Positions 22,107 to 34,717 of a stretch of 64,000 bases of DNA are shown here, one piece after another; position 1 is the first letter of the stretch, and every line of letters starts with the position of its first letter. The notes beneath the pieces were generated by a model. That model worked only from the letters and a program-made list of their open reading frames with translations. It was not told the origin of the DNA and made no database searches. The stretch covers positions 21,393 to 85,392 of the forward strand of contig CAKKRH010000014.1 of NCBI GenBank assembly GCA_919902675.1, in the 5' to 3' direction. The translations under genes were made by a program, and so were the position numbers. The stretch is from Omnitrophica bacterium GWA2_41_15 (GTDB taxonomy: Bacteria > Omnitrophota > Gorgyraeia > Gygaellales > UBA12090).

Positions 22107-22322
22107 TTATGCTGATACCGGGGTCAGACTAAATACACGCGCGATCTTCGTTGCCCTCTGCAGGGAGCCTTCTCGCAAAGCTTCCCTTACCTCATCTATC
22201 TTTTGGGCATCTTCAAGAGAAAGATACGGCGACCAGCCATCTCCGGTATCAAGAATCTCCACATCAATTTCCGCGACATATTTGCCCTCGTGCACGAGTT
22301 TTGTATGCTGCCTCTTTGTCAT
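22107..22322 (-). CDS. 71-aa hypothetical protein
   Basis: The ATG at 22322 is preceded by a GGAGG RBS (MTKRQHTKLVHEGKYVAEIDVEILDTGDGWSPYLSLEDAQKIDEVREAL...). I recognise no domain. Confidence 0.5.
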   Translation of the reverse strand: MTKRQHTKLVHEGKYVAEIDVEILDTGDGWSPYLSLEDAQKIDEVREALREGSLQRATKIARVFSLTPVSA

Positions 22323-22371
22323 ATTCGCCTCCTGGTAAAATTGTCTGTCCACATATTTACATCCGGCCTAT

Positions 22372-22442
22372 AAAAAAAGGGGTCAGAGTCATTTTTGAAT
22401 TGTTGTTGTCTCACAAGCAAAAATGACTCTGACCCCTTTTTT
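22372..22442. terminator. ~25-bp perfect inverted repeat flanked by A- and T-tracts (bidirectional terminator-like)
   Basis: aaaaaaaggggtcagagtcatttttg ...loop... caaaaatgactctgacccctttttt. It lies between the 776-aa gene and the 71-aa ORF. Confidence 0.6.
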
Positions 22443-22522
22443 GAATGTTCTGCTCACAACTAAATTATATCACCACAGAGATAAAATATCTATAGATAAG
22501 ATTAAGAAATCTGGAAATCCGC

Positions 22523-24853
22523 TTAACTCATGCCCGCCTTTTGGCTATTAGGCAAGAGGACGAATTTAGCGGTGTCCACAATCACCAGCGACTCTCTAAG
22601 TTCCGGGCTAGTTTCCAGATTCTCTTCCTCTGCCAAGCGGTAGATCTCAGCCAGACAGACTAACAAATCATCCTGTTTTTCCTCAATCTTACCCTTCTGG
22701 AAGCAGGCGGCCAGATATTCCTTAACCCTCTCTCCCGAAGGCACCATCCCGGCCTTGACCATATCGCGCAAGGCCTCTAACTCCTCATCCAAGTCAAGCC
22801 TCTCCAGCGCGCTGATAGTTAAGGTAGGCAGGCCAAAGCGCAAATCCTTAAAGCTCCCCATCGGCTGGACCAGATAATTCATAGCTCGAAAATCAATACC
22901 GCCGACATTTTTAAGAGCAGGTTTAGAAATTGTCTCCATTGAGGAAGAAGCCATAATCTCTGCTATCTTTTTATCAACCATTTCCTGCAGGCTCTCATTT
23001 CCTTTAGGATTCTGAATAACGTAGCCTATAATTTCTCCTACCTCTTGTATGGCAGGGTTACGGTCAATCTTTTCCCGGAATCTTTCCACAATAGATTTTA
23101 CATATTTCTCACTCGCAGCACCCGTTTGCCCTACGATTCTCTTTACTACAGCCTCCGCATCAATTTCTAGCTTTTCCCAATCTTCCTGAAGCTGTTTTAA
23201 CTCGGAAATGCTACCCCTTAATGTTAATAATCTTGGTCCTGATCGCACCGCGTATCCTTCCGGCAGAATATTTACCAATAATTCCTTACCATAAAAGCCT
23301 CTTCTCTCAGAAAGCATCTCTACAATTTCCTTTATTTCTTCCCCCTTTTCTATTTTTATTCTTGTGCCGTCTCGGTAAAAAGTCTTTAAATAAGATAACA
23401 TTCTACCAATATCTTGAAAGCCGCTTTCCGCAATTTCAATCTCCCCCCTGTTCTTTTGCTCGCTTAATTTCTCAATATTAAGCATTTTTTCAATATCCTT
23501 CACTATAACCCACAATCTTCTTTCAAGCTTTCGCATTTCTTCTATCTGCTTAAGAGAAAGAGAATCCATATCTTTCCGCCTTGCCTCCATCGGCGAAGAG
23601 CCTTTTTCTCCATTAGCCGTACCTGGCTCAAGCACAATTATTTTAACTCCTATATTGTTTCCGTATGTTGTAAAATAAAGTTTTTCAGTCTGTTCGTTTG
23701 GTTTAAGTTTATAACCTTGGACACTAACAACATCAAGGTGTCCTTTATCTTTACTAACATCATGGTATGTATTCTCGGTCATCACTGGACTGCTTATGGC
23801 CATCCCCCCGCTGACATAGCTCCTGATTGCCTGACCAGTAGGGGTGACTACCTGCTCTTTAAGGTTATATTCGCCTTGTTCAAAGGATTTCTTGTATTCA
23901 TTAAAGTAGTAGGTTTTATCCCAGGCCTCTTTAGAAGTAAGGTTAGTGAGATTATGGGAATCTATGAGTTTAACATAGGAGTTGCTATTCTGTGGACTAT
24001 GGACTGTGGACTGTGGACTGAATGTTTCTTTGAACCAGCGGGCCATTACCAGAGAAAAAAAGACCTGGCGAAGGGCGGCGTAGCGCTTGGAGATGTTTAC
24101 CTTTTTGGTCAGCTTAGGGATAATCAGCTCCCGGATAAGCCGGGTGGAGTATTCGTTGAGCTCCTTCATCCTGGGATCTTTGAAATTATATTGCTGAGAG
24201 TTGATAGCTGACGGCTGAGAGCTTAAGTAATCATGTTCTAACATCACCTTCATATTGGCCTTAAAGATATAGGCCGAGTCTTCTCCTTGCCTTAAGATTA
24301 TCTCTCCCGGGACTATCCAAGGCCGGGTGATGGTGGGAATGGTGATGTTTTCACTGCCGAATAGCTCTCCGGCCTTCTTATAAAGCTTGTCCCAGTATTG
24401 CTTACCTTCCGGGGTCTGGGGCGAGGTCAGGCCGGCGGTGTCCTTCTTTAACTGCAGGTCGGCCTCAAGCATAACCTTACCCATATCGGTTTTCTCAAGC
24501 TCCGGGTCTATCATCTGGTCCGGGGCGTCCGGCCTTAGGTTGACCCAGAACTTCTCATTAGGCAGGGCCAGGCCAATCTGGAAATACTCCATCAGCACCT
24601 TGGTCTTTTCCTCTAATTCAGCTTCTTTAATATCCTTATTGTCTCCCTTATCTAAGAGTAACTGAAAATCATCCTTCTCTATATCGTATGAGAAATAGCG
24701 CATATGTAAGGGGCGGAACCTGTCCGCTGCCAGGCTGCTGCCTACGGTATGCAGGTAGGTTCCTATGTTAAGCTGGGCTACTCCCTGGGCAAAGATGGGC
24801 TGACCTGTAATCAGGGTCCAAGACAAAAGAATAGAGATTATCTTCTTTAGCAT
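22523..24853 (-). CDS. 776-aa secreted protein of unknown function
   Basis: Signal peptide MLKKIISILLSWTLITGQPIFAQG and a GGAGG RBS. The middle is Lys/Glu-rich and coiled-coil-like, and the C-terminal region contains VGGIDFRAMNYLVQP. I cannot name a domain. Confidence 0.7.
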   Translation of the reverse strand: MLKKIISILLSWTLITGQPIFAQGVAQLNIGTYLHTVGSSLAADRFRPLHMRYFSYDIEKDDFQLLLDKGDNKDIKEAELEEKTKVLMEYFQIGLALPNEKFWVNLRPDAPDQMIDPELEKTDMGKVMLEADLQLKKDTAGLTSPQTPEGKQYWDKLYKKAGELFGSENITIPTITRPWIVPGEIILRQGEDSAYIFKANMKVMLEHDYLSSQPSAINSQQYNFKDPRMKELNEYSTRLIRELIIPKLTKKVNISKRYAALRQVFFSLVMARWFKETFSPQSTVHSPQNSNSYVKLIDSHNLTNLTSKEAWDKTYYFNEYKKSFEQGEYNLKEQVVTPTGQAIRSYVSGGMAISSPVMTENTYHDVSKDKGHLDVVSVQGYKLKPNEQTEKLYFTTYGNNIGVKIIVLEPGTANGEKGSSPMEARRKDMDSLSLKQIEEMRKLERRLWVIVKDIEKMLNIEKLSEQKNRGEIEIAESGFQDIGRMLSYLKTFYRDGTRIKIEKGEEIKEIVEMLSERRGFYGKELLVNILPEGYAVRSGPRLLTLRGSISELKQLQEDWEKLEIDAEAVVKRIVGQTGAASEKYVKSIVERFREKIDRNPAIQEVGEIIGYVIQNPKGNESLQEMVDKKIAEIMASSSMETISKPALKNVGGIDFRAMNYLVQPMGSFKDLRFGLPTLTISALERLDLDEELEALRDMVKAGMVPSGERVKEYLAACFQKGKIEEKQDDLLVCLAEIYRLAEEENLETSPELRESLVIVDTAKFVLLPNSQKAGMS
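23993..24020. repeat. heptanucleotide tandem repeat (tggactR x4) inside the 776-aa CDS
   Basis: Read directly as tggacta tggactg tggactg tggactg. The unit length is not a multiple of 3. Confidence 0.8.
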
Positions 24854-25025
24854 TTTAGCTACCTCCGGAAGGATTTTTGGGGTGGATTTTTGGGTTATTT
24901 TGTAGTGTATTCATATTGTAGCTAAAATATACCACAAGAAAAGACAAAAACAAGGTCCAGGCCGTGTTTTTGAGAAAGCGCTTTCTTGGGGAGGAGTTAT
25001 CGTCGGAGAAGTAAAAAGCGGGGTG

Positions 25026-25066
25026 AAAAAATAAATAAAAAGGCGGCCCGCGTGTTACAGGCCGCC
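25026..25066 (-). terminator. rho-independent terminator after the ferredoxin gene
   Basis: Minus-strand read: GGCGGCC-tgtaacacgcg-GGCCGCC followed by TTTTTATTTATTTTTT. Confidence 0.7.
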
Positions 25067-25094
25067 ATCAATGGCTAAAACTTACTATTAAAGG

Positions 25095-25277
25095 TTATTC
25101 TACCTTAATACAGCTTACCGGACAACTCTCGGCTACCTCTTTGAGGTTGTGGTTGGCCGCGCAGTTAGAACCCAGCACATGGGCCAGGCCGTCGCCCTGG
25201 ACCCGAAAGACCTCCGGACAGCCCTGTTCACATAAACCGCACCCCACACAAGTTGAAGCATCAACACTTACCTTCAT
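25095..25277 (-). CDS. fdx: small monocluster ferredoxin
   Basis: 60 aa with CVGCGLCEQGCP ... CP. It lies directly downstream of the por operon and is the likely electron acceptor. Confidence 0.85.
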   Translation of the reverse strand: MKVSVDASTCVGCGLCEQGCPEVFRVQGDGLAHVLGSNCAANHNLKEVAESCPVSCIKVE

Positions 25278-25302
25278 TTATCGTTCCTCCATTTTTGGCG
25301 TA

Positions 25303-27342
25303 TTAGACTTTTGGTTGAGCCTGGACAGCTTGAGGCGGCTGCGGAACGATTTGCTCCGCTTTCAGGCCGTATCTCTCAATATTTTTATCCGCCACTGCCT
25401 GTATCTGCTTAACTAACTCAGGCGAATTGATAATATGTTTGAACCTTCCCTGACACTTTAAATATTCCTCAACCGGCTTAATCTTGGCTAATTTACGCGC
25501 ATTGGTCAATTTTCCGTTTTCATATTCTATTAAAGGGTAAAGCCCTGTTTCCACCGCGAGCTTGGCAATATCATAAGTAAGTTGAGACTCATGCCTCCAG
25601 CCCAGAGGACAGGGAACGTGAATCTGGAGATATTTCGGGCCCTTAATGGATATAGCCTTTTTAACCTTATTCTCTATATCTCTAAGGTAACCCACCGAAG
25701 CCGTAGCCACATAAGCCAAGCCGTGGGCCACGGCAATTTCCGGCATCGGCTTCTTGGGCCGGGGATTGCCGGCGGATTGACTGCCTATGGGTGTAGTAGA
25801 GGTAGAGGTTTCAAAAGGAGTCAGCCCGCTGCGCTGAACGCCGGTATTATGCACCACAATGCCGTCAGCGATAAAATTATGCTCATCCTCCACCCTCAAA
25901 TCCAGGGTCGGCTCGATACCTTTAGACTCTACACTGATAATTTCTTCGGTCTGAAAAAATTCATTCTCCATCAAGAAATCCCGATACCGGGATTGCGAAG
26001 GATATTTCTTTATGTCCGGCTGGATTTTGCGGCTAAAACAGATATAGCCATATTCTGAATCTACCAGTAAGTTCCTGTTTACGCATTTAGTGCCTTTTTT
26101 CTTGGTTTGGGTATGAATTTTTCCTACCCGGTAATTGAGCGTCTGAAGCAATAAGCGCATCCGTTTCAAGAGCTCAAAACTTGCCGAGACATATCTTTTG
26201 CTCCCTTTATGGTCATAACCGTCAGCCAGCATCAAGCCTTCAACAAACGCTTCTTTCTCTTCTTTAGGAAGGGTGAATATCCAGCCGGGTATAGTTTTAT
26301 TCTTCGCTCCCTGTCCCAACCCCAATGTATCTATAAATTTAGTTAAGTTAACCGAGTAAATTGAAAGATAGTTCTCATCCTGGGACACCGGACTAGAAAA
26401 TATTTCTTTATGCAGGCCAACCAGAACCTCTCTGGCTTTTTTGCCTTTGGGCAGAGCAAACCCTATTTCATCCCGGCCTTCCCTTCTCCAGCCGTCGCCG
26501 ACAAATATCCCCAGGTACTTCATCAGCTCCGGGGTGGATTCCCGGGGCAAATTTACTTCATTGAGCTTATTAACCTTATAATCGCCTTTTTTTACCTTAT
26601 TTATCTGGCTGAATTTAAACGACCGGCAGGCGCCGTTCATCCCTTTCAAAGATACTACCTGGTCACCGATTTTGACATTCTCAAGCGTCTTCCAAACAAA
26701 AGAATTCGACCGCCCTCTGCCGTTTCTTTTTAAGATCAGAAAAGGGTGATTCGCGGTTGCCTTTATGGAATGGTGGCGGGTTTGCAGTTCAAATACCTCT
26801 TTTTTGCCGTTATCAAAGACACCACTGCATTTCTTAATTACTAAGTGCCGGGTATTTTGGTCAAAGGCATAAACCCCGTCGCCAACCTTTATCTCGGTTA
26901 TTTTCTTAAGCCCATCCCCGGTTAAAATCAATGACGAGAGGCTTAAACAATTCATATAGGCCTCATTGTCATAGCAGATTGACAGGATATCGTGGCCTCT
27001 TTCCCACATCCCAGATAACGCCTGTAATCCGATATCCGCGGTTCCCCCGTCCCCGGCCTGGCAAATGACATTTATTTTATCCTTGACTCCCAGATGCTTT
27101 AAGGCCGCCTCAATGCCGGAGGCAACTGCCGCGGCATTCTCAAATAAGGAATGGATCCAGGGAACTCCCCAGGATGATTCCGGATATTTGGTGGAGAAAA
27201 CCTCAAGACAGCCGGTATTATTGGCAATCATAGTGTTTTTTCCGGCAATATCTATGACTAACCTGGCGGCAACTGCCTGGCCGCATCCGGCGCAAGCGGT
27301 ATGCCCGGCGCAAAAAAGGTGTTCTGAAGCTGGGGCGCTCAT
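25303..27342 (-). CDS. porB: pyruvate:ferredoxin oxidoreductase beta subunit (ThDP-binding), interrupted by an intein
   Basis: The exteins (131 aa + 180 aa) carry CAGCG..., GDGG...YDNEAYMN|TG and the C-terminal PorB region. A 368-aa insert lies between them. Confidence 0.9.
25846..26949 (-). mobile_element. intein with a LAGLIDADG homing-endonuclease domain (368 aa)
   Basis: Begins with Cys ([13 protein letters not shown]) and has block B ATANHPF and LAGLIDADG-like motifs LGIFVGDGW and [11 protein letters not shown]. It ends in IVVHN followed by Thr+1. Confidence 0.85.
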
Positions 27343-28514
27343 ATACTTTCCTCTAATAGTTCCGCTTTTAAATCAATATATTCTTCGCTTATGGTTTTAG
27401 CGCTTAATCTTTTGTATACCTCTTTGATGGAATCAATGGTAATATCCCTTCCTCCCAGTCCGATAACAAAACCGCTGATCACCGGGGATTTCTTTTTACC
27501 GCTGAATACCGCGCGGATTTCGCTCAGTAAAGGACTATAGGAACCCAAAGACACCGCCTTCTCTAATACCGCCACCCGAGGCACATTTTTTAGAGCCTGG
27601 CATATCTCATCAATAGGTAAAGGCCGATAGGTAACAATTTTGAGCAGGCCTACTTTTTTGCCCTTTTCTCTCAAGGCATCGATGACATCCTTAATCGTGC
27701 CACAGACCGAGCCCATAGCCACAATAACTTTCTCGGCGTCATCCAATCTATACCCCTCAACCAAGCCGCCGGAAGGACGGCCGAATATTTTCTGAAATTC
27801 CTCTTTTACCACTGGAATAAGCTTTAAAACATCTTTGTGGGTCTGGTGAACGGCAAAGCGGGCCTCTAAGTAATAATCAGGATCGACCAAAGGCCCAAAA
27901 GTCAGCGGATTACTTACATCTAATCTGTATAAAGCTTTATAAGCGGGCAGAAACTTATCCACCTGATCCTGCTCCGGAAGCTCCACCACCTCTAAGCCAT
28001 GGGTAAGGATAAAGCCATCCATATTCACCATCACCGGAAGCATTATCTTAGGATCTTCGGCAATCCGGTAGGCCTGGATATGTAAATCAATGGCCTCCTG
28101 AACATTCTCCGCGTGTAACTGCACCCAGCCGGAATCGCGCACCGTAATGGCGTCCTGATGGTCATTCCAGATATTCAAAGGAGCGGAAATTGCCCTATTG
28201 GCGCAGGTCATTACTACCGGAAAGCGCATCCCGGCGATATTGAAGACTACCTCAGCCATCAATAAAAGCCCCTGGGAGCTGGTGGCGGTAAAAGAGCGCG
28301 TCCCGGCCGCGGAGGCGCCCAAAACCACGCTGGCCGCGGAATGCTCAGACTCCACGTTCACAAACTCAGCCCTTAGCTTTCCGTTGGCGATTATTGCCGC
28401 TAACTCTTCCACAATATGGGTTTGGGGGGTAATCGGATAAGCGGAAATCACTCCCGGCTTGCATAATCTTACTGCCTCGGCTACGGCGAGGGATCCTTCT
28501 AATAACTCACGCAT
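27339..28514 (-). CDS. porA: pyruvate:ferredoxin oxidoreductase alpha subunit
   Basis: 391 aa ([26 protein letters not shown]...), the typical PorA N-terminus. Confidence 0.9.
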
Positions 28515-28516
28515 TT

Positions 28517-28771
28517 TTAGTCTTCCTTTACCATTACAATATCTTTTTTAGGACAAACTGCCGCGCAATTACCACAGCCTTTACAAAAGTTAGAATCGTA
28601 ATCGTAGGTATTTTTGGCTTCGCCGGTTATGCAGGCCTCCGGGCAGATCAAAACGCACATTTTACAGGCAATGCAATCTTTCTTTAAGAACTTAGGCTTA
28701 TGCTCGACCCGCCAGGAACCGGTTTTATTCGCTTTGGATGTGGAAGGCTTGGAAATTAACGGGCCAAACAT
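28517..28771 (-). CDS. porD: pyruvate:ferredoxin oxidoreductase delta subunit (2x[4Fe-4S])
   Basis: 84 aa with two Cys clusters, CIACKMCVLICP and CKGCGNCAAVCP. Confidence 0.85.
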   Translation of the reverse strand: MFGPLISKPSTSKANKTGSWRVEHKPKFLKKDCIACKMCVLICPEACITGEAKNTYDYDSNFCKGCGNCAAVCPKKDIVMVKED

Positions 28772-29337
28772 TTTTCCTCACTCTGCTTAGACAGCCTGCA
28801 TTGCTTTATATATTCATAGCCTTTCTGGGTGGCTGAAATATTCTGTTCCACCGCTTTACCAGAAAATCTATGTTTAATCGCCTGAATTAAAGAATCCAAT
28901 TTTATCTCATCTGTTGCCGCCACATAGGCCCCCAGCAAAGCAGTATTACCTAATGGCCTTCCGATAGTCTCCATGGCTATGTCGTTAGCCGCGACCAGAT
29001 AGATCTTTTGTCCGCTTTTATGCTCCGGGATGCCGAAGTCATGCCGGGCGTTAATTATGGCCACCCCGTTATCCTTGAAACCTTTGAAGCAGTTAAACCC
29101 GCGCAGTAAGGTAGCGTCGGAAATCAAAAGATAATCGGGCTCATAAATCTGAGAACGCAGGCGCACCGGCTTATCGTCAACCCGGACAAAGGCGTTCATC
29201 GGCGCGCCCATCCGGGCCGCCCCGAAATTAGGAAAGGCGTAGGGGAACTTCCCCTCCAGGAAATAGGCAAAGCCTAAAATGCTGGCGGTAGTTATCGCGC
29301 CTTGGCCGGCGCGGGCATGGATTCTGATTTCTTTCAA
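28756..29337 (-). CDS. porG: pyruvate:ferredoxin oxidoreductase gamma subunit
   Basis: 193 aa (IRIHARAGQGAITTASILG...), TTG start. It is the first gene of porGDAB. Confidence 0.9.
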   Translation of the reverse strand: MKEIRIHARAGQGAITTASILGFAYFLEGKFPYAFPNFGAARMGAPMNAFVRVDDKPVRLRSQIYEPDYLLISDATLLRGFNCFKGFKDNGVAIINARHDFGIPEHKSGQKIYLVAANDIAMETIGRPLGNTALLGAYVAATDEIKLDSLIQAIKHRFSGKAVEQNISATQKGYEYIKQCRLSKQSEEKCLAR

Positions 29338-29409
29338 CTGAAAATTCCTTTTTAAATTCTATTGTTCTGAAGATTTATGACGGATTAACACACGGAAGTT
29401 ATAATTATA

Positions 29410-29844
29410 TCATCCAATGGGGGGCTTTTGCAAGATTTTTTTATCTTTTTTTCCTGCCGGTTCAGTAGAAGGCGGATTGCTTCTTCCCATGCCCTCTAAA
29501 ATACCGCTAAAAGCGGACTCAAAATCGTAGACATTCTTAAAATCATCCAGAGAATCGGTCTCGGTCCTAAAAAAGAATTTATTCTCAATCAGATTAAAGA
29601 CAATATTGCCCACATCCTCGGTCCGATGGATACCCCAGTGGTTGAGAACGGTCTTAGCCATCGGCCCGAACTGCTCAATAGCGAACTCTTTTAAACCCTC
29701 CAAGAGTTCCTTTCCTAAAATATGGCCATGGCGCTTAAGTTTCTTTTGGGAAAAATGCAGGGCCGCGGCCACAAATTCATAAGCATCAGGCTTATAGCGG
29801 CTGTCTTTAGAAAATATACTCTCTACAGTCTTTTCAAAGTTCAT
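29410..29844 (-). CDS. hypothetical protein resembling the Minf_1886 family (PVC-restricted)
   Basis: 144 aa. The assignment of HILGKELLEGLKEFAIEQFGPMAKTVLNHWGIHRTEDVGNIVFNLIE is from memory of that family and is unverified. Confidence 0.45.
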   Translation of the reverse strand: MNFEKTVESIFSKDSRYKPDAYEFVAAALHFSQKKLKRHGHILGKELLEGLKEFAIEQFGPMAKTVLNHWGIHRTEDVGNIVFNLIENKFFFRTETDSLDDFKNVYDFESAFSGILEGMGRSNPPSTEPAGKKDKKILQKPPIG

Positions 29845-29846
29845 TT

Positions 29847-30143
29847 CTAGGTCAAACCGGGGATGTTAAGGCCGGTAACCGACTTCATCTTGTCCGCGGC
29901 TATATCGTGAGAACGTTTTAAGGCCTGAGTTAGCGTATCTTTTAGAGCGGCCTCCAAAACAGAATTCTTCATATCGGCTAAATTCCCCTGGATCTTAACG
30001 CCCCTTATCTCCTGAGAGCCGTTCATCTCCACCTTAACCGTCTTATCCCGGCTTTCCACTTCAAAGATAACGCCATCCAGCTCCCGCTTTAGCTCCTGCA
30101 TCTTCTTCTGCATATCCCAAAGGGATTTCATTTTATCAAACAT
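29847..30143 (-). CDS. ybaB: YbaB/EbfC family nucleoid-associated protein
   Basis: 98 aa (MQKKMQELKREL...VKVEMNGSQEI..VKI...) ending in ...TGLNIPGL. Confidence 0.85.
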   Translation of the reverse strand: MFDKMKSLWDMQKKMQELKRELDGVIFEVESRDKTVKVEMNGSQEIRGVKIQGNLADMKNSVLEAALKDTLTQALKRSHDIAADKMKSVTGLNIPGLT

Positions 30144-30203
30144 ATCTTTACCTCCGTTTCACACAAATTATTATTATACAACGAATATTAGATTTTTAAA
30201 GAA

Positions 30204-31421
30204 TTAATATTTCCTCACTCCGCATGGCCTCCAGGATGGAGAGATTACCTTGTTCGGCTCATCGGCACCTAACAAGGCCGCGAATTTTAAAACCCCCTCC
30301 CCAAAATGCCCATTGATAGAATCCAGCGCCCGGTTCAACTTCTTCTTGCGCGCGTCCTCTTCAAAAAGAAAAAAATCTTCCTGATTCTTTTCTAAGCCGG
30401 ACACACTTACCCCCAAAAGCCGCAGGGGTTTTGACAGGGAAGTATTACCGATAATTGCCATGGCCTGTGAATATATAACCCTGGTATCATCGGTTGAGGC
30501 CGGAATTTTCTTCTGACGGCTAAAGGTATGAAAGTCGCTATAGCGAAATACCACTGAAATTGTTCTTCCGGACAGGCCTTCCCGGCGCATCCTGCGGCCA
30601 ACCATATCCGACAACCCTAAAATACACCTGGCTATATCAGCGCAGGCGCTGATATCATGCTCCAGGGTCATGCTATGGCCGATGGAGCAGGCCTTAGGCT
30701 CATAACCAAAGGGCATTATCGTTGCATCATCTTTTCCCGCTCCCATCTGCTTCAATATTTCTCCCCCGATCCCGAATCTTTTCCTGAGTAACCCGGGATC
30801 GGCTTTAGCCAGCTGAGAACAGGTATATATACCTAAGCTGTTTAAAACCTGGGTGGTCTTTTTTCCGATACCACATAATTCATCCACCGCAAGATTCTCC
30901 AGCTCCTTTGGAGCGTCTTCTGCCTTTATCCGAAACAGGCCATCCGGCTTATGCCGGGAACCGGCTAACTTTGCCAGTAATTTATTCGGGCCGATACCCA
31001 CCGAACAGCTCAAATCTAATTTCCCTCTTATCGCTTGTTTTATTTTCCGGCCTATCTCGAGCGGCTCTCCCAATAAACGGCGCACATTAGTAATATCCAG
31101 GAATGACTCATCAATAGAATATACTTCTATATCCGGGCTGAAGACATAGAGTATTTTTACAATTTCCCGACAGGCTTGGGTATACTTTTCATGACAAGCC
31201 TCAACAAAGATAAGCTCAGGGCAGATCCTTTTTGCCTCAAACTTATTCATCCCGGTTTTTACCCCTAAGGTCCGAGCCTCATAAGAAGAGGTAACTACAA
31301 CAGTCCGGCCGCCTCTACCCACAACCGCGACCGGTCTGGCCAGCAACTGAGGATTATCCCTTTGCTCTACCGAAGCAAAGAAAGCATCCATATCTATATG
31401 CAAAATTATCCGTTCAGCCAT
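30204..31421 (-). CDS. dinB: DNA polymerase IV
   Basis: 405 aa with ILHIDMDAFFASVEQRDNP and SIDESFLD, both Y-family polymerase motifs. Confidence 0.9.
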   Translation of the reverse strand: MAERIILHIDMDAFFASVEQRDNPQLLARPVAVVGRGGRTVVVTSSYEARTLGVKTGMNKFEAKRICPELIFVEACHEKYTQACREIVKILYVFSPDIEVYSIDESFLDITNVRRLLGEPLEIGRKIKQAIRGKLDLSCSVGIGPNKLLAKLAGSRHKPDGLFRIKAEDAPKELENLAVDELCGIGKKTTQVLNSLGIYTCSQLAKADPGLLRKRFGIGGEILKQMGAGKDDATIMPFGYEPKACSIGHSMTLEHDISACADIARCILGLSDMVGRRMRREGLSGRTISVVFRYSDFHTFSRQKKIPASTDDTRVIYSQAMAIIGNTSLSKPLRLLGVSVSGLEKNQEDFFLFEEDARKKKLNRALDSINGHFGEGVLKFAALLGADEPNKVISPSWRPCGVRKY

Positions 31422-31465: not shown

Positions 31466-34400
31466 TTAAGATAAAATAACGTCTATTCTGGAAATTTTTC
31501 CTTGCCGGATATCTTCAGCAACCGGAGAGCCTAAATTAGAGGAGGGGAAAGTTTTTTTGGTTTTATCTATATATTCTACGGTTATTTCTTGTATCTTAGC
31601 GGCATTTTTGCCGAAGGTATCTCTTTTCTTGGGGCTGTGGTATACCACCAGGGTTTGGCTTAAAAACTTAAAGGCAAAGCTATGCTTGGGGAATCCACCC
31701 TCTTGTCTCTGGCTAAACAGCCAGGAAGGAAGCACCGGCTTAAATTCTAAATTAAGCCTTCCCTGCTTGTCCAGATAAAAAGGCCGCGCTCCGGCGCACA
31801 TATAAAGCCAGATGCTGATAAACTCGGCGGTTGAGCCGCTTAAGCGGGCCACAAACCCCGTGCCGTGCAAATTTTCATCCGGAAAGACGCTAGAAACCAG
31901 GAATGAGGAATTTTCCAGAATGCTCCTTCCGTAACGAGCCGGATTCTGAAAAGGAATCAGCACATTTTTAAAATCTTCAAAAAACTCGGCGTAGAGCCCG
32001 TTTTTAAGTAGTTCAAATATATACTTATACTCCATATGCAGCCAGATGGATTCGTTCTCTAACCACCCGGGGCTAAAAATACGACAGCGGCCGATCTCTT
32101 CAGGCATATCTTCCAAAGGAGCGCAGACCTTATACATCTTCAGCTTTTTATCAAAAAGCCCGGACTTACGGATTGCCTTAAACACCTCTTTAGCTTGATT
32201 GGGATTATCTAAGGTCCTTAAATAATGCATCGGGCCTTCTAAAAATAAAGGTAAGGGCAGCTGCTTGAATTTAAGCGGCTTTACTCCCTGCGCGGATTCA
32301 AAATTCTCTAAAGGTTGATACTGGCTGACCTCGTTGATAAAATAGGAGTAACACAGCTTTGACTTAGGGTCATAAGCCTTCTTAAGTCCGGCATCAAGCC
32401 TTTCCAGGAATTTATCCAGGGTTTCGTCCAGCTTTGCGAAATCAAGTTCTCTGAAATCACCGCCAAATCCCAATACGGTCTTCTTAAGATAATCTTCTCT
32501 CAGGCTGTGGGACTTGTCCCAGAAGGTAAAATCGTCTTTTTCACCGCTTATATCTTTAAGGCCTCCAAGCAGTTCATAAAGCTCAAATGGAAGCTCCGGA
32601 GAACAGCTATTTTGGAGGTTTAATTCCTTAAGCTTATCGCGCAGGAAAATAATCCAACGTTTAAGCTCAAAGGTCTCACAGGTAGAGGAACCCAATAATC
32701 CGGGCAGGCCGTTCAAAGAATCAAACCAATTAGGCTTATTGGCATCCATCTCCACCCCCACCCCAAAAGGGTCCAGGCCGGCGAATTTATTGGCAATTAC
32801 TACCAGCATCTTAACTGTCAGGGTAGTTTTATAAATACCGCCCAAACCATCTTTGAGGCGCGAGACATGGGACTGGGCATCCCTTTTTTTAATCAGGTCG
32901 CGTTTGGCGTGATTATTCGCCAGGGAATGAAACTGAAATACCCGATTGCCTTTTAAGATATATCTTTCTGTCCTTGGCCGCAAGACCTCGGAATTATCAA
33001 AGAAGGTAAACTCTTTATTCTCTAAAAGTATGCTCTTAAGATTCTCAGGATACAGCGCCAAAAAGCTGATCAAAAGGTCAAGGCAATATGCCCAGTGGTC
33101 GCTCCAGAATCCTTCGCCGTGTTCGGCGCTGAATGATTTGGCGGAATTGGCTAAGACGGATTTCAAGAATCCCTCCCGGTCATTAAGATTTATTTCATTC
33201 TGCTCTAATGAATATAACAACTCACCCGGGGTAAAAGGCTTTTCTAAAAGGGTCCGGAGTTTCGAAGAATCATCTTTACGCAAGAATTTATCCAGGGAGG
33301 CATAATTTCCGTTAAAGGTAAAATTATCCGGTTTGATAACTAAGGGATTATAGCCGTCAGTCTGCAGGAGATTAAAAAAGTTCAGGATATTCTCTTCTTT
33401 TACCAGCGGATTAAACCAGACATCCGACCTGCGGTTCTGGTTGGCATCCCGGTAGTTGCCGTTGCCCTGGGAGAAATAGGTTGGCTCAATAAGGAAGCGG
33501 TTATAATCCCGCTCTAAATCACCGTGCTTACGGGAATAAACCTGGATATTGGTAAGGCCGGCGGCTTGGGCTATGGCCCCGCCTACGGCGGGGTGGCCAG
33601 CGGAATGTTTTAAAGAATAAGGATAGCCGCCACGCAAGACATTATCCAGAAAATTTTGCCGGCAATAAAGGTCAAAATTTTTAGACCCGGAATGAGTGAA
33701 TACCCCGGAGGTTAAATCTTCAATCAATTTTCTATTCTCAACCTGCTTATCTATAAGATACTCTTTACCGGCTATTCTTTTTGAGTTTTCCTTCAACTTA
33801 TCTAAGGTAGACATATTCCCGGCCAGGGAATGAACCTCATAAGTTTCATCGGCCCGAAGGGCAATCGCGCGATAACCCATACAACAAGGAGTTTTACCGC
33901 GGGTAAGCTGTTTTTTAGGATAGCTGAATTTTTTAGTTTCTAAAAATCGCGCCGGATAAGTAAAATCGCTCATCTGGCCAAAGATTGCCTCCGGGTCAAC
34001 TATCGGCTTAATCAGGCCCCAAGCGTCAAAGGCCAGGTAAAAATTCCCTTCCCGGATACGCGTTACCTCAGGCCGGTCCGCCGGGTCAACCACCAGCCGT
34101 AAGAAAGGGATGCCATTCTCCAGATTTTCTACCTGCATCCAGGCCTCGATGGTCCGGGAGAGCTCCTTTAAAAGGAAATTGTTGGTGCCAAATGGTATAA
34201 TCTGAGGAAGGCCGTCAATTATTTCTAAATCCCTGACTTTGCGGGTTAGATTCCTGACGCTCAATTTTCGGACCAGCGCTCCGTAATTATCATTAGGAAT
34301 AGTAAAGTACTCAATGTTTATCTCCAAGCCTAAGGTCTGATTTATCTCCCTCAATTTAAGCTCAGAGGAGCTTATCCGCATCTGGCGGACAATTTCAAAT

Positions 34401-34717
34401 CCGCAATCACTTAAACCGCTGTTAAAGGCATCATAAAGAAGAGTTTTATTCCGAGAATTTTCCTTAATCAAAGTCCTGAAGCCTTGTAAGGAAGTAAGTT
34501 GATAGGCCTTATTAGCCGGCTGAAACTCTAGAATCGGATGATCTTTATCCCGGACTCCAAAACTGGCAATAGCCTGGCCCCGGTTAACATAAAAAGCCCA
34601 GATTGGAACTCCCCAGACCCCGGCGACACCGGGAAAAAAGCTGGAAAAAGGCTTACTTAAGTGATAATTCTCTATCACAAACTCGTTGTCTTTGTTTAAA
34701 TAGTATTTGGGTTTCAT
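31466..34717 (-). CDS. 1083-aa conserved uncharacterised cytoplasmic protein (possibly glycoside hydrolase/phosphorylase-like)
   Basis: Long uninterrupted ORF with no signal peptide. Motifs FFPGVAGVWGVPIWAFYVNRGQ and GNGNYRDANQNRRSDVWFNP. The functional guess is weak and from memory only. Confidence 0.6.
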   Translation of the reverse strand: MKPKYYLNKDNEFVIENYHLSKPFSSFFPGVAGVWGVPIWAFYVNRGQAIASFGVRDKDHPILEFQPANKAYQLTSLQGFRTLIKENSRNKTLLYDAFNSGLSDCGFEIVRQMRISSSELKLREINQTLGLEINIEYFTIPNDNYGALVRKLSVRNLTRKVRDLEIIDGLPQIIPFGTNNFLLKELSRTIEAWMQVENLENGIPFLRLVVDPADRPEVTRIREGNFYLAFDAWGLIKPIVDPEAIFGQMSDFTYPARFLETKKFSYPKKQLTRGKTPCCMGYRAIALRADETYEVHSLAGNMSTLDKLKENSKRIAGKEYLIDKQVENRKLIEDLTSGVFTHSGSKNFDLYCRQNFLDNVLRGGYPYSLKHSAGHPAVGGAIAQAAGLTNIQVYSRKHGDLERDYNRFLIEPTYFSQGNGNYRDANQNRRSDVWFNPLVKEENILNFFNLLQTDGYNPLVIKPDNFTFNGNYASLDKFLRKDDSSKLRTLLEKPFTPGELLYSLEQNEINLNDREGFLKSVLANSAKSFSAEHGEGFWSDHWAYCLDLLISFLALYPENLKSILLENKEFTFFDNSEVLRPRTERYILKGNRVFQFHSLANNHAKRDLIKKRDAQSHVSRLKDGLGGIYKTTLTVKMLVVIANKFAGLDPFGVGVEMDANKPNWFDSLNGLPGLLGSSTCETFELKRWIIFLRDKLKELNLQNSCSPELPFELYELLGGLKDISGEKDDFTFWDKSHSLREDYLKKTVLGFGGDFRELDFAKLDETLDKFLERLDAGLKKAYDPKSKLCYSYFINEVSQYQPLENFESAQGVKPLKFKQLPLPLFLEGPMHYLRTLDNPNQAKEVFKAIRKSGLFDKKLKMYKVCAPLEDMPEEIGRCRIFSPGWLENESIWLHMEYKYIFELLKNGLYAEFFEDFKNVLIPFQNPARYGRSILENSSFLVSSVFPDENLHGTGFVARLSGSTAEFISIWLYMCAGARPFYLDKQGRLNLEFKPVLPSWLFSQRQEGGFPKHSFAFKFLSQTLVVYHSPKKRDTFGKNAAKIQEITVEYIDKTKKTFPSSNLGSPVAEDIRQGKISRIDVILS

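Follow-up and report, generated by a model that had tools for sequence, protein, structure and literature searches.

The window, the whole 64,000-nucleotide stretch of Omnitrophica bacterium GWA2_41_15 DNA that was analysed, carries on its minus strand a porB gene whose product, the beta subunit of pyruvate:ferredoxin oxidoreductase (POR), is interrupted by a 368-amino acid (aa) insert. We conclude with high confidence that this insert is a canonical class-1 intein with a nested monomeric, two-motif LAGLIDADG homing endonuclease, placed in frame at the active-site loop; splicing and DNA cleavage are predicted from its sequence. The intein (about 42 kDa) comprises residues 132–499 of the PorB precursor and is encoded by 1104 nt at 25846..26949 (minus strand). 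Its HINT splicing domain and endonuclease were assigned from profile matches, matches to structures in the PDB, an AlphaFold2 model compared by Foldseek, and an exact indel relative to an empty allele. The precursor open reading frame (ORF; 25303..27342, minus strand, 679 aa and a stop codon in the ORF list) consists of the N-extein, the intein and the C-extein, and it matches TPP_enzyme_C and the PorB model NF008819 in two stretches that flank the intein. An earlier reading made from the letters alone (the sequence-only reading) had proposed a LAGLIDADG intein here, with 131 + 180 aa of PorB-like sequence around a 368-aa insert that starts with Cys and ends with His-Asn followed by Thr, and this description held in every part.

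The boundaries of the element were defined by comparison with an intein-free allele. In a search with the in-silico spliced PorB, the best 120 homologues listed were all intein-free proteins of 280–317 aa. The top homologue (P0121), on a contig from Hainich groundwater well H52 (locus L003), shares 98% protein identity with the spliced PorB, and the contig keeps the gene order of the window at 88–93% DNA identity. The DNA alignment of L003 with the window stops at 26950 and restarts at 25848, with a 3-nt AAT overlap, and the empty site in L003 reads ...GCCTATATGAAT before the junction and ACTGGCGTCCAACGC... after it. The spliced gene and the empty L003 gene are both 936 nt long and differ at 70 sites, mostly synonymous. 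Because the empty allele lacks precisely this insert, the element is fixed at exactly 1104 nt, confirming the coordinates 25846–26949 of the sequence-only reading to the base. Occupied and empty porB alleles are both present in related genomes of this one well.

Two independent short-read contigs, of which one comes from well H52, encode the exact 679-aa protein as well, which shows that the interrupted gene is not an assembly artefact. A long contig of the same organism in the European Nucleotide Archive (ENA; L001, ERZ1286166 contig_3842, 444,595 bp) is 99.8% identical to the window, with 11 indels per 7.2 kb (compared with 22303..30342). On this contig, porB is called as two genes of 192 aa and 400 aa (P0037), and the neighbouring 776-aa gene is called in three pieces. 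A real porB frameshift behind the split ENA gene calls was considered and rejected, because L001 is indel-rich and the short-read contigs carry the intact ORF. L001 looks like an unpolished long-read assembly, and the split of porB is due to sequencing error.

Profile searches of the insert identified both parts of a bifunctional intein, in agreement with the sequence-only reading and at a level that chance does not explain. The scores exceeded the cutoffs for Pfam Intein_splicing (53 bits, cutoff 35.8) and LAGLIDADG_3 (24.5 bits, cutoff 22.5), and for NCBIfam intein_Nterm (31.0, cutoff 24.5) and intein_Cterm (26.6, cutoff 15.6). The intein starts with CLSLSS, after ...YDNEAYMN, and ends with ...GIVVHN, before TGVQRSG. 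Its set of class-1 residues is complete. Cys1 of block A (26947..26949, minus strand) acts as the nucleophile in the N-S acyl shift, block B is ATANHPF (26740..26760, minus strand) with Thr65 and His68, and block F contributes Asp350. The block G junction (25843..25857, minus strand; TIGR01443 intein_Cterm match) reads VVHN followed by T, giving His367, the terminal Asn368 and the +1 Thr nucleophile (25843..25845). All six intein residues are conserved in 80/80 full-length family members, and Thr occupies the +1 position in every homologue in which the C-terminal junction was located, in a junction search that admitted Thr, Ser or Cys. Intein Cys41 (26827..26829, minus strand) is likewise invariant in the 80 full-length copies, and the aligned residue of the Ssp DnaB intein is Val; we know of no role for Cys41 in splicing chemistry.

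The endonuclease domain extends approximately over intein residues 125–325 (25975..26577, minus strand). LAGLIDADG motif 1, LGIFVGDGW (26488..26514, minus strand), contains the catalytic Asp152, which is Asp in 78/80 copies and Asn in 2. Motif 2 (26215..26247, minus strand) includes GLMLADGY with the catalytic Asp243, which is Asp in 80/80 copies, and the Pfam LAGLIDADG_3 match covers residues 231–299. Both Asp residues are thus retained together in 78 of the 80. Block B and the two LAGLIDADG-like motifs lie where the sequence-only reading had placed them.

Comparison with known structures supports the same architecture. The insert matched the Ssp DnaB intein (1mi8, E 9e-10) and the nuclease region of PI-PkoII (2cw7, E 1e-8) by sequence in the PDB. 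An AlphaFold2 model of the intein, built on 47 family sequences, was confident, with a predicted local distance difference test score (pLDDT) of 93 and a predicted template modelling score (pTM) of 0.91. The best Foldseek matches of the model in the PDB are endonuclease-containing inteins, led by TliVMA (7qsu, E 3e-22, template modelling score 0.72) and followed by PhoVMA, PI-PkoII (2cw7), PI-SceI and PI-PfuI. I-DmoI matches the modelled nuclease core, and mini-inteins, Hedgehog and BIL (bacterial intein-like) domains match the HINT part. The alpha/beta core of the nuclease runs from the helix at residues 140–152 to the strand at 298–307, and its pseudo-dimeric alpha-beta-beta-alpha-beta-beta-alpha fold agrees with I-DmoI and with the nuclease domains of PI-PkoII and the VMA inteins. 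No further intein was detected in the 64,000-nt window, as a phmmer search of its six-frame translation matched porB only and a Pfam search of the ten other largest ORFs gave none.

These data leave hardly any room for the insert being a non-splicing PorB domain, a cleavage-only BIL domain or an assembly chimera. Weak Pfam matches to Hint and PT-HINT would fit such an origin, and they fall below their cutoffs. Against it stand the full set of class-1 blocks, including the terminal Asn and the +1 nucleophile, the nested homing endonuclease and the recurrence of the identical protein in three independent assemblies; moreover, alignment to intein-free PorB homologues, a check named in the sequence-only reading, showed that the closest ones lack exactly the insert. 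BIL domains are HINT domains that lack a nuclease and, in most cases, a +1 nucleophile, and they occur in variable proteins that are not essential. A BIL domain was ruled out by the nuclease, by Thr+1 and by the location in the conserved core of an enzyme.

We then located the insertion site on PorB. Alignment of the N-extein (PorB residues 1–131; 26950..27342, minus strand) to 9bt4_C, 5c4i_C and 1b0p_A places the whole thiamine diphosphate (ThDP)/Mg motif, Gly97-Asp98-Gly99 plus 26 residues plus Asn126, within the N-extein. The equivalent residues, GDG 89b–91b and Asn118b, bind Mg in the 2-oxoacid:ferredoxin oxidoreductase (OFOR) of S. tokodaii (PMC5020499). The intein sits between Asn131, the last residue of the N-extein, and Thr132 of mature PorB, five residues past Asn126. 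The sequence-only reading had the intein splitting the ThDP/Mg motif, and on this point it has to be corrected, since the GDG-X26-N motif is uninterrupted. The Asn131-Thr junction aligns with Asn996-Thr997 of the D. africanus pyruvate:ferredoxin oxidoreductase (PFOR), in which Asn996 lines the pyruvate pocket and rotates upon pyruvate binding (PMC5020499). Its equivalent in the S. tokodaii OFOR, Leu123b, also five residues past the Mg-binding Asn, influences substrate specificity (PMC5020499). By alignment, the insertion site therefore lies in the active-site loop adjoining the cofactor motif, not within the motif.

The insertion also divides a set of conserved cysteines. C17 and C20 (CxGC) and C45 lie in the N-extein, and the Cys of HVPCPLGW, which aligns with Cys1071 of the D. 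africanus PFOR, lies in the C-extein (PorB residues 500–679 and the stop codon; 25303..25845, minus strand). We take these four to be the ligands of an iron-sulfur cluster, partly on the basis of the D. africanus structure. It is reasonable to expect that the unspliced precursor would be inactive.

We propose that the 679-aa precursor would have no working active site, the 42-kDa insert parting the cofactor motif and three cluster cysteines from the remainder of the loop and the fourth cysteine. Splicing would start with an N-S acyl shift at Cys1, aided by block-B Thr65 and His68, followed by attack of the Thr+1 hydroxyl on the thioester to give a branched ester. Cyclisation of Asn368, aided by His367 and block-F Asp350, would release the intein, and an O-N shift would restore an Asn-Thr peptide bond, giving a PorB of 311 aa (about 34 kDa). 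These splicing steps are standard intein chemistry. The endonuclease of the freed intein would then cut intein-less porB at the conserved junction, between ...TATATGAAT and ACNGGNGTNCA..., and repair from the occupied allele would copy the element in (homing).

To describe the distribution of the element, homologues at the same PorB position were collected. More than 100 clusters (90% identity) carry a homologous intein at this site, with Y(M/A/E)N preceding its initial C and TG(I/V)Q following its terminal HN. When one genome per GTDB species was scanned, 478 stretches were confirmed, and the best 80 loci were analysed; in 79 of these 80, an uninterrupted intein occupies this PorB site, corresponding to at least 79 species-representative genomes. 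Host taxa were taken from record titles. Bacterial hosts include Omnitrophota, Aerophobetes, Cloacimonadota, Patescibacteria/Parcubacteria, Poribacteria and Vermiphilus; archaeal hosts include Woese-, Nano-, Micr- and Aenigmatarchaeota (DPANN), Heimdallarchaeota (Asgard), Bathyarchaeia and Hadesarchaea. Beyond this family, the most similar inteins reside in other host proteins and share only about 30–35% identity.

The PorB-site inteins range from 150 to 370 aa and include mini-inteins, partly deleted forms and full-length forms. Shortened copies of 150–224 aa occur at the same site (P0095, P0096, P0105–P0120, P0070, P0093 and P0099 form the shortened or degraded set), as do full-length copies with degraded LAGLIDADG motifs, e.g. 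GNGW, SDRY and IACGE. As judged from their sequences, the shortened, degraded and full-length copies together cover the stages expected of a homing cycle.

The relationships among these inteins are only loosely coupled to those of their hosts. Intein and extein identities correlate with r = 0.50, and in 90% of all pairs the inteins resemble each other more closely than the exteins do. Pairs of a bacterium and an archaeon have inteins up to 81% identical and exteins 46–51% identical, an example being the Cloacimonadota metagenome-assembled genome (MAG) L047 compared with the archaeal MAGs L068 and L059. Two Cloacimonadota MAGs, L047 and L050, compared with four archaeal MAGs (L068, L059, L045 and L071), have 77–81% identical inteins and 46–51% identical exteins, and these would be the clearest candidates for fairly recent inter-domain transfer. 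Conversely, Omnitrophota pairs with 80–86% extein identity have an intein identity of only 57–61%. This decoupling indicates repeated horizontal transfer, including transfer between Bacteria and Archaea.

Selection on the element was examined by comparison with its closest relative, L004, whose intein is 93% identical. The intein as a whole has a ratio of nonsynonymous to synonymous divergence (dN/dS) of 0.094; its endonuclease part has 0.085 and the exteins have 0.026–0.085 (C-extein 0.085), with similar dS throughout. These values show that the endonuclease is under strong purifying selection. The catalytic residues are intact and the element is probably still mobile, in line with the sequence-only reading, which took an intact endonuclease domain to suggest that the element can still home. 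Homing has indirect support from the low dN/dS, from the incongruence between intein and host, and from the presence of occupied and empty alleles among related genomes.

Several observations weigh against a mobile intein with a homing endonuclease, most of them from the lineage of the window. The intein dS is about equal to the extein dS in the comparison with L004, which fits vertical inheritance in this lineage. Comparison of the window with the empty allele revealed neither a co-conversion tract nor raised DNA identity near the junction; synonymous differences are, if anything, slightly more frequent immediately past it, and there is thus no sign of recent homing here. The G+C content at third codon positions (GC3) of the intein, 50.3%, matches that of the host gene, which marks it as a long-term resident. 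Within porB, the signal is too weak to tell loss of the intein in L003 from its ancestral absence. On the level of the family, the taxon labels of the MAGs may be imprecise, and no viral carrier was found in IMG/VR, where the search gave no PorB-type copy and only distant inteins in other genes, with at most 31% identity over the full length.

The history of the empty allele was considered in the same comparison. Over the operon minus the intein, L003 (empty) and L004 (occupied) are 93.1% identical, and either is 90.6–91.2% identical to the window. With L010 as the outgroup, 55 informative sites support the grouping of L003 with L004, vs 28–29 for the others. Precise loss of the intein in L003 is not claimed, as porB alone gives no decision.

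The vertical appearance in this lineage (intein dS like that of the exteins, GC3 like that of the host gene, no co-conversion signal) is also what would be expected if the intein still splices and its endonuclease no longer cuts, being inherited vertically only, with the nuclease fold kept for folding or splicing. A few family members with Asp-to-Asn or Gly-to-Arg changes in the LAGLIDADG motifs point in the same direction. However, both catalytic Asp residues are kept in the window copy as in 78/80 copies, the dN/dS of the endonuclease part is 0.085, and the decoupling of intein and extein identities requires many transfers. In addition, the 150–224-aa copies at the same site show that the nuclease is dispensable for splicing and is lost when unselected. 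A dead nuclease is therefore disfavoured by the selection data and the shorter, nuclease-less copies, and we regard it as unlikely, though as the most serious of the alternatives considered here.

A further alternative is that the intein now serves the host as a conditional switch, in which redox state or another signal gates splicing, and hence POR maturation, e.g. through a disulfide with Cys1. The position of the intein in the active-site loop, the oxygen sensitivity of the enzyme, the invariance of Cys41 and the persistence of the intein across many lineages would fit such a role, and gating of inteins by redox state or stress has been proposed for other proteins (PMC4760082). Most close relatives, on the other hand, lack the intein, and the pattern of presence and absence together with the horizontal spread fits a selfish element without benefit to the host. 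We consider the switch improbable. It would be similarly speculative to picture the intein as a post-translational gate that delays maturation of the oxygen-labile POR until conditions are reducing, possibly by way of Cys41 and Cys1, with its spread among Omnitrophota, Patescibacteria and DPANN archaea tracing DNA exchange among very small groundwater organisms.

The canonical intein with a nested homing endonuclease remains the preferred reading, and its parts resemble several known systems. The archaeal VMA inteins TliVMA and PhoVMA (7qss, 7qsu, 7qst), which are the best fold matches, likewise enclose a two-motif LAGLIDADG endonuclease in a HINT domain and are about as long (about 360–430 aa), but have only 18–20% sequence identity to the PorB intein and occupy an unrelated insertion site in V-ATPase subunit A. 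PI-PkoII, PI-SceI and PI-PfuI, to all of which the fold matches, have the same bifunctional architecture, but are larger (454–537 aa), contain extra DNA-recognition or stirrup domains, and reside in DNA polymerase, V-ATPase and ribonucleotide reductase. Among solved splicing domains, those of the Ssp and Npu DnaB inteins are the closest in sequence; they have in common with the PorB intein a block B of the form ...IKATANH.FL... and blocks F/G of the form ...HNF(I/V)A(D/N).I.VHN; the NCBIfam DnaB model PRK07773 also matches the PorB intein. The solved DnaB inteins are nuclease-less mini-inteins hosted by the replicative helicase, and they use Ser at +1, whereas the PorB intein has Thr.

Most intein hosts act in replication, repair or nucleotide metabolism, but InBase also lists inteins in other metabolic enzymes, such as M. 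jannaschii UDP-glucose dehydrogenase, GlmS and phosphoenolpyruvate (PEP) synthase; both the host enzyme and the site differ from those of PorB. The sequence-only reading had left it undecided whether the PorB site was already catalogued. A search of the full-text literature, which did not extend to InBase, found no paper on an intein in POR, PorB or any OFOR. In the databases, by contrast, the site is represented by the clusters described above, and the JGI automatic annotation labels some copies 'beta subunit/intein/homing endonuclease'. In a 2015 survey of inteins, 62–67% of the hosts fell in COG category L and 8–22% in F, and its main text does not mention pyruvate or ferredoxin (PMC4760082). 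The PorB intein is thus real and widespread, though apparently undescribed, and it brings a new host protein and a new site to a well-understood kind of selfish element.

The assignment of the host gene as porB is supported by the exteins and by its neighbours. The best NCBIfam model for the exteins is the PorB model NF008819, which they match in two stretches (E 2e-109, 365 bits); the score of the precursor is below the curated cutoff of 405 because of the insert, and a VorB-type NCBIfam model scored 306 bits. Asn at the position equivalent to Asn996 fits a pyruvate pocket. The in-silico spliced PorB aligns over residues 1–292 with the PFOR beta subunit in PDB entry 9bt4_C (E 3e-107), and also with the oxalate oxidoreductase beta subunit (5c4i_C) and the D. 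africanus PFOR (1b0p).

Upstream of porB lie the genes for the other subunits, whose best NCBIfam models are PorA, PorD and PorC/G. porA, encoding the alpha subunit (27339..28514, minus strand), overlaps the start of porB by 4 nt at its 3' end and matches PorA_Arch (NF040682, E 5.5e-161) with 535.8 bits, just below the curated cutoff of 550. It is preceded by porD, encoding the delta subunit with 2x[4Fe-4S] (28517..28771, minus strand; TIGR02179 PorD_KorD, 81.3 bits, cutoff 60), and by porG/porC, encoding the gamma subunit (28756..29337, minus strand; TIGR02175, 186 bits, cutoff 81), both of which pass the subfamily cutoffs. Downstream of porB is a gene for a 60-aa ferredoxin (fdx; 25095..25277, minus strand), assigned from Fer4_13 and Fer4_15 matches to the 60-aa gene that L001, L084 and L085 carry in this position. 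The por genes and fdx are tightly packed on the same strand and bracketed by a promoter-like site upstream of porG (TTGCAA-18-TATAAT, TG extended; 29404..29433, minus strand) and a strong terminator-like hairpin after fdx (10 pairs, 8 of them G-C, followed by a T run; 25042..25066, minus strand), both of which are consensus matches only. The porGDAB plus fdx operon named by the sequence-only reading agrees with these profile matches, with PorA falling slightly short of its cutoff.

Other ORFs around the operon were also inspected. Just upstream of porG, a 144-aa protein (29410..29844, minus strand) belongs to the Minf_1886 family (TIGR04138, 'Plancto_Ver_chp', 145.8 bits); its gene keeps the same position in L003, where it adjoins a YbaB-like gene. 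The 776-aa ORF just downstream of the por-fdx operon (22523..24853, minus strand) has no Pfam or NCBIfam match, and its position is kept on contigs L084 and L085. A 1083-aa ORF (31466..34717, minus strand) has no Pfam domain; its sole match is a weak N-terminal one to the GH149 beta-1,3-glucan phosphorylase model (96.7 bits, cutoff 1150). Two antisense ORFs inside porB and the intein, 25582..26058 (plus strand, 158 aa) and 26410..26733 (plus strand, 107 aa), are not called as genes on related contigs and are most likely chance ORFs.

Many occupied porB genes are incompletely annotated. In NCBI MAG annotations (L002/L013, L005, L007 and L009; P0001–P0005 and many others), the predicted protein starts at 'MNCLS', with the Met two residues before Cys1, and is named as hypothetical or as a LAGLIDADG endonuclease. 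The N-extein, with about 120 in-frame codons, goes uncalled, though the frame is continuous.

The finding does not change the understanding of how inteins work. It extends the list of intein hosts, in which proteins of replication, repair and nucleotide metabolism prevail (PMC4760082), to a central enzyme of energy metabolism and to a precise position in its active site. The naturally diverse full-length and shortened Thr+1 inteins may serve protein engineering. Because the N-extein is uncalled, automated metabolic reconstructions can miss PorB, and hence POR, in these lineages. As a common element that is found in many uncultured phyla of Bacteria and Archaea and shows signs of inter-domain transfer, the PorB intein could mark gene flow in anoxic groundwater and sediment communities.

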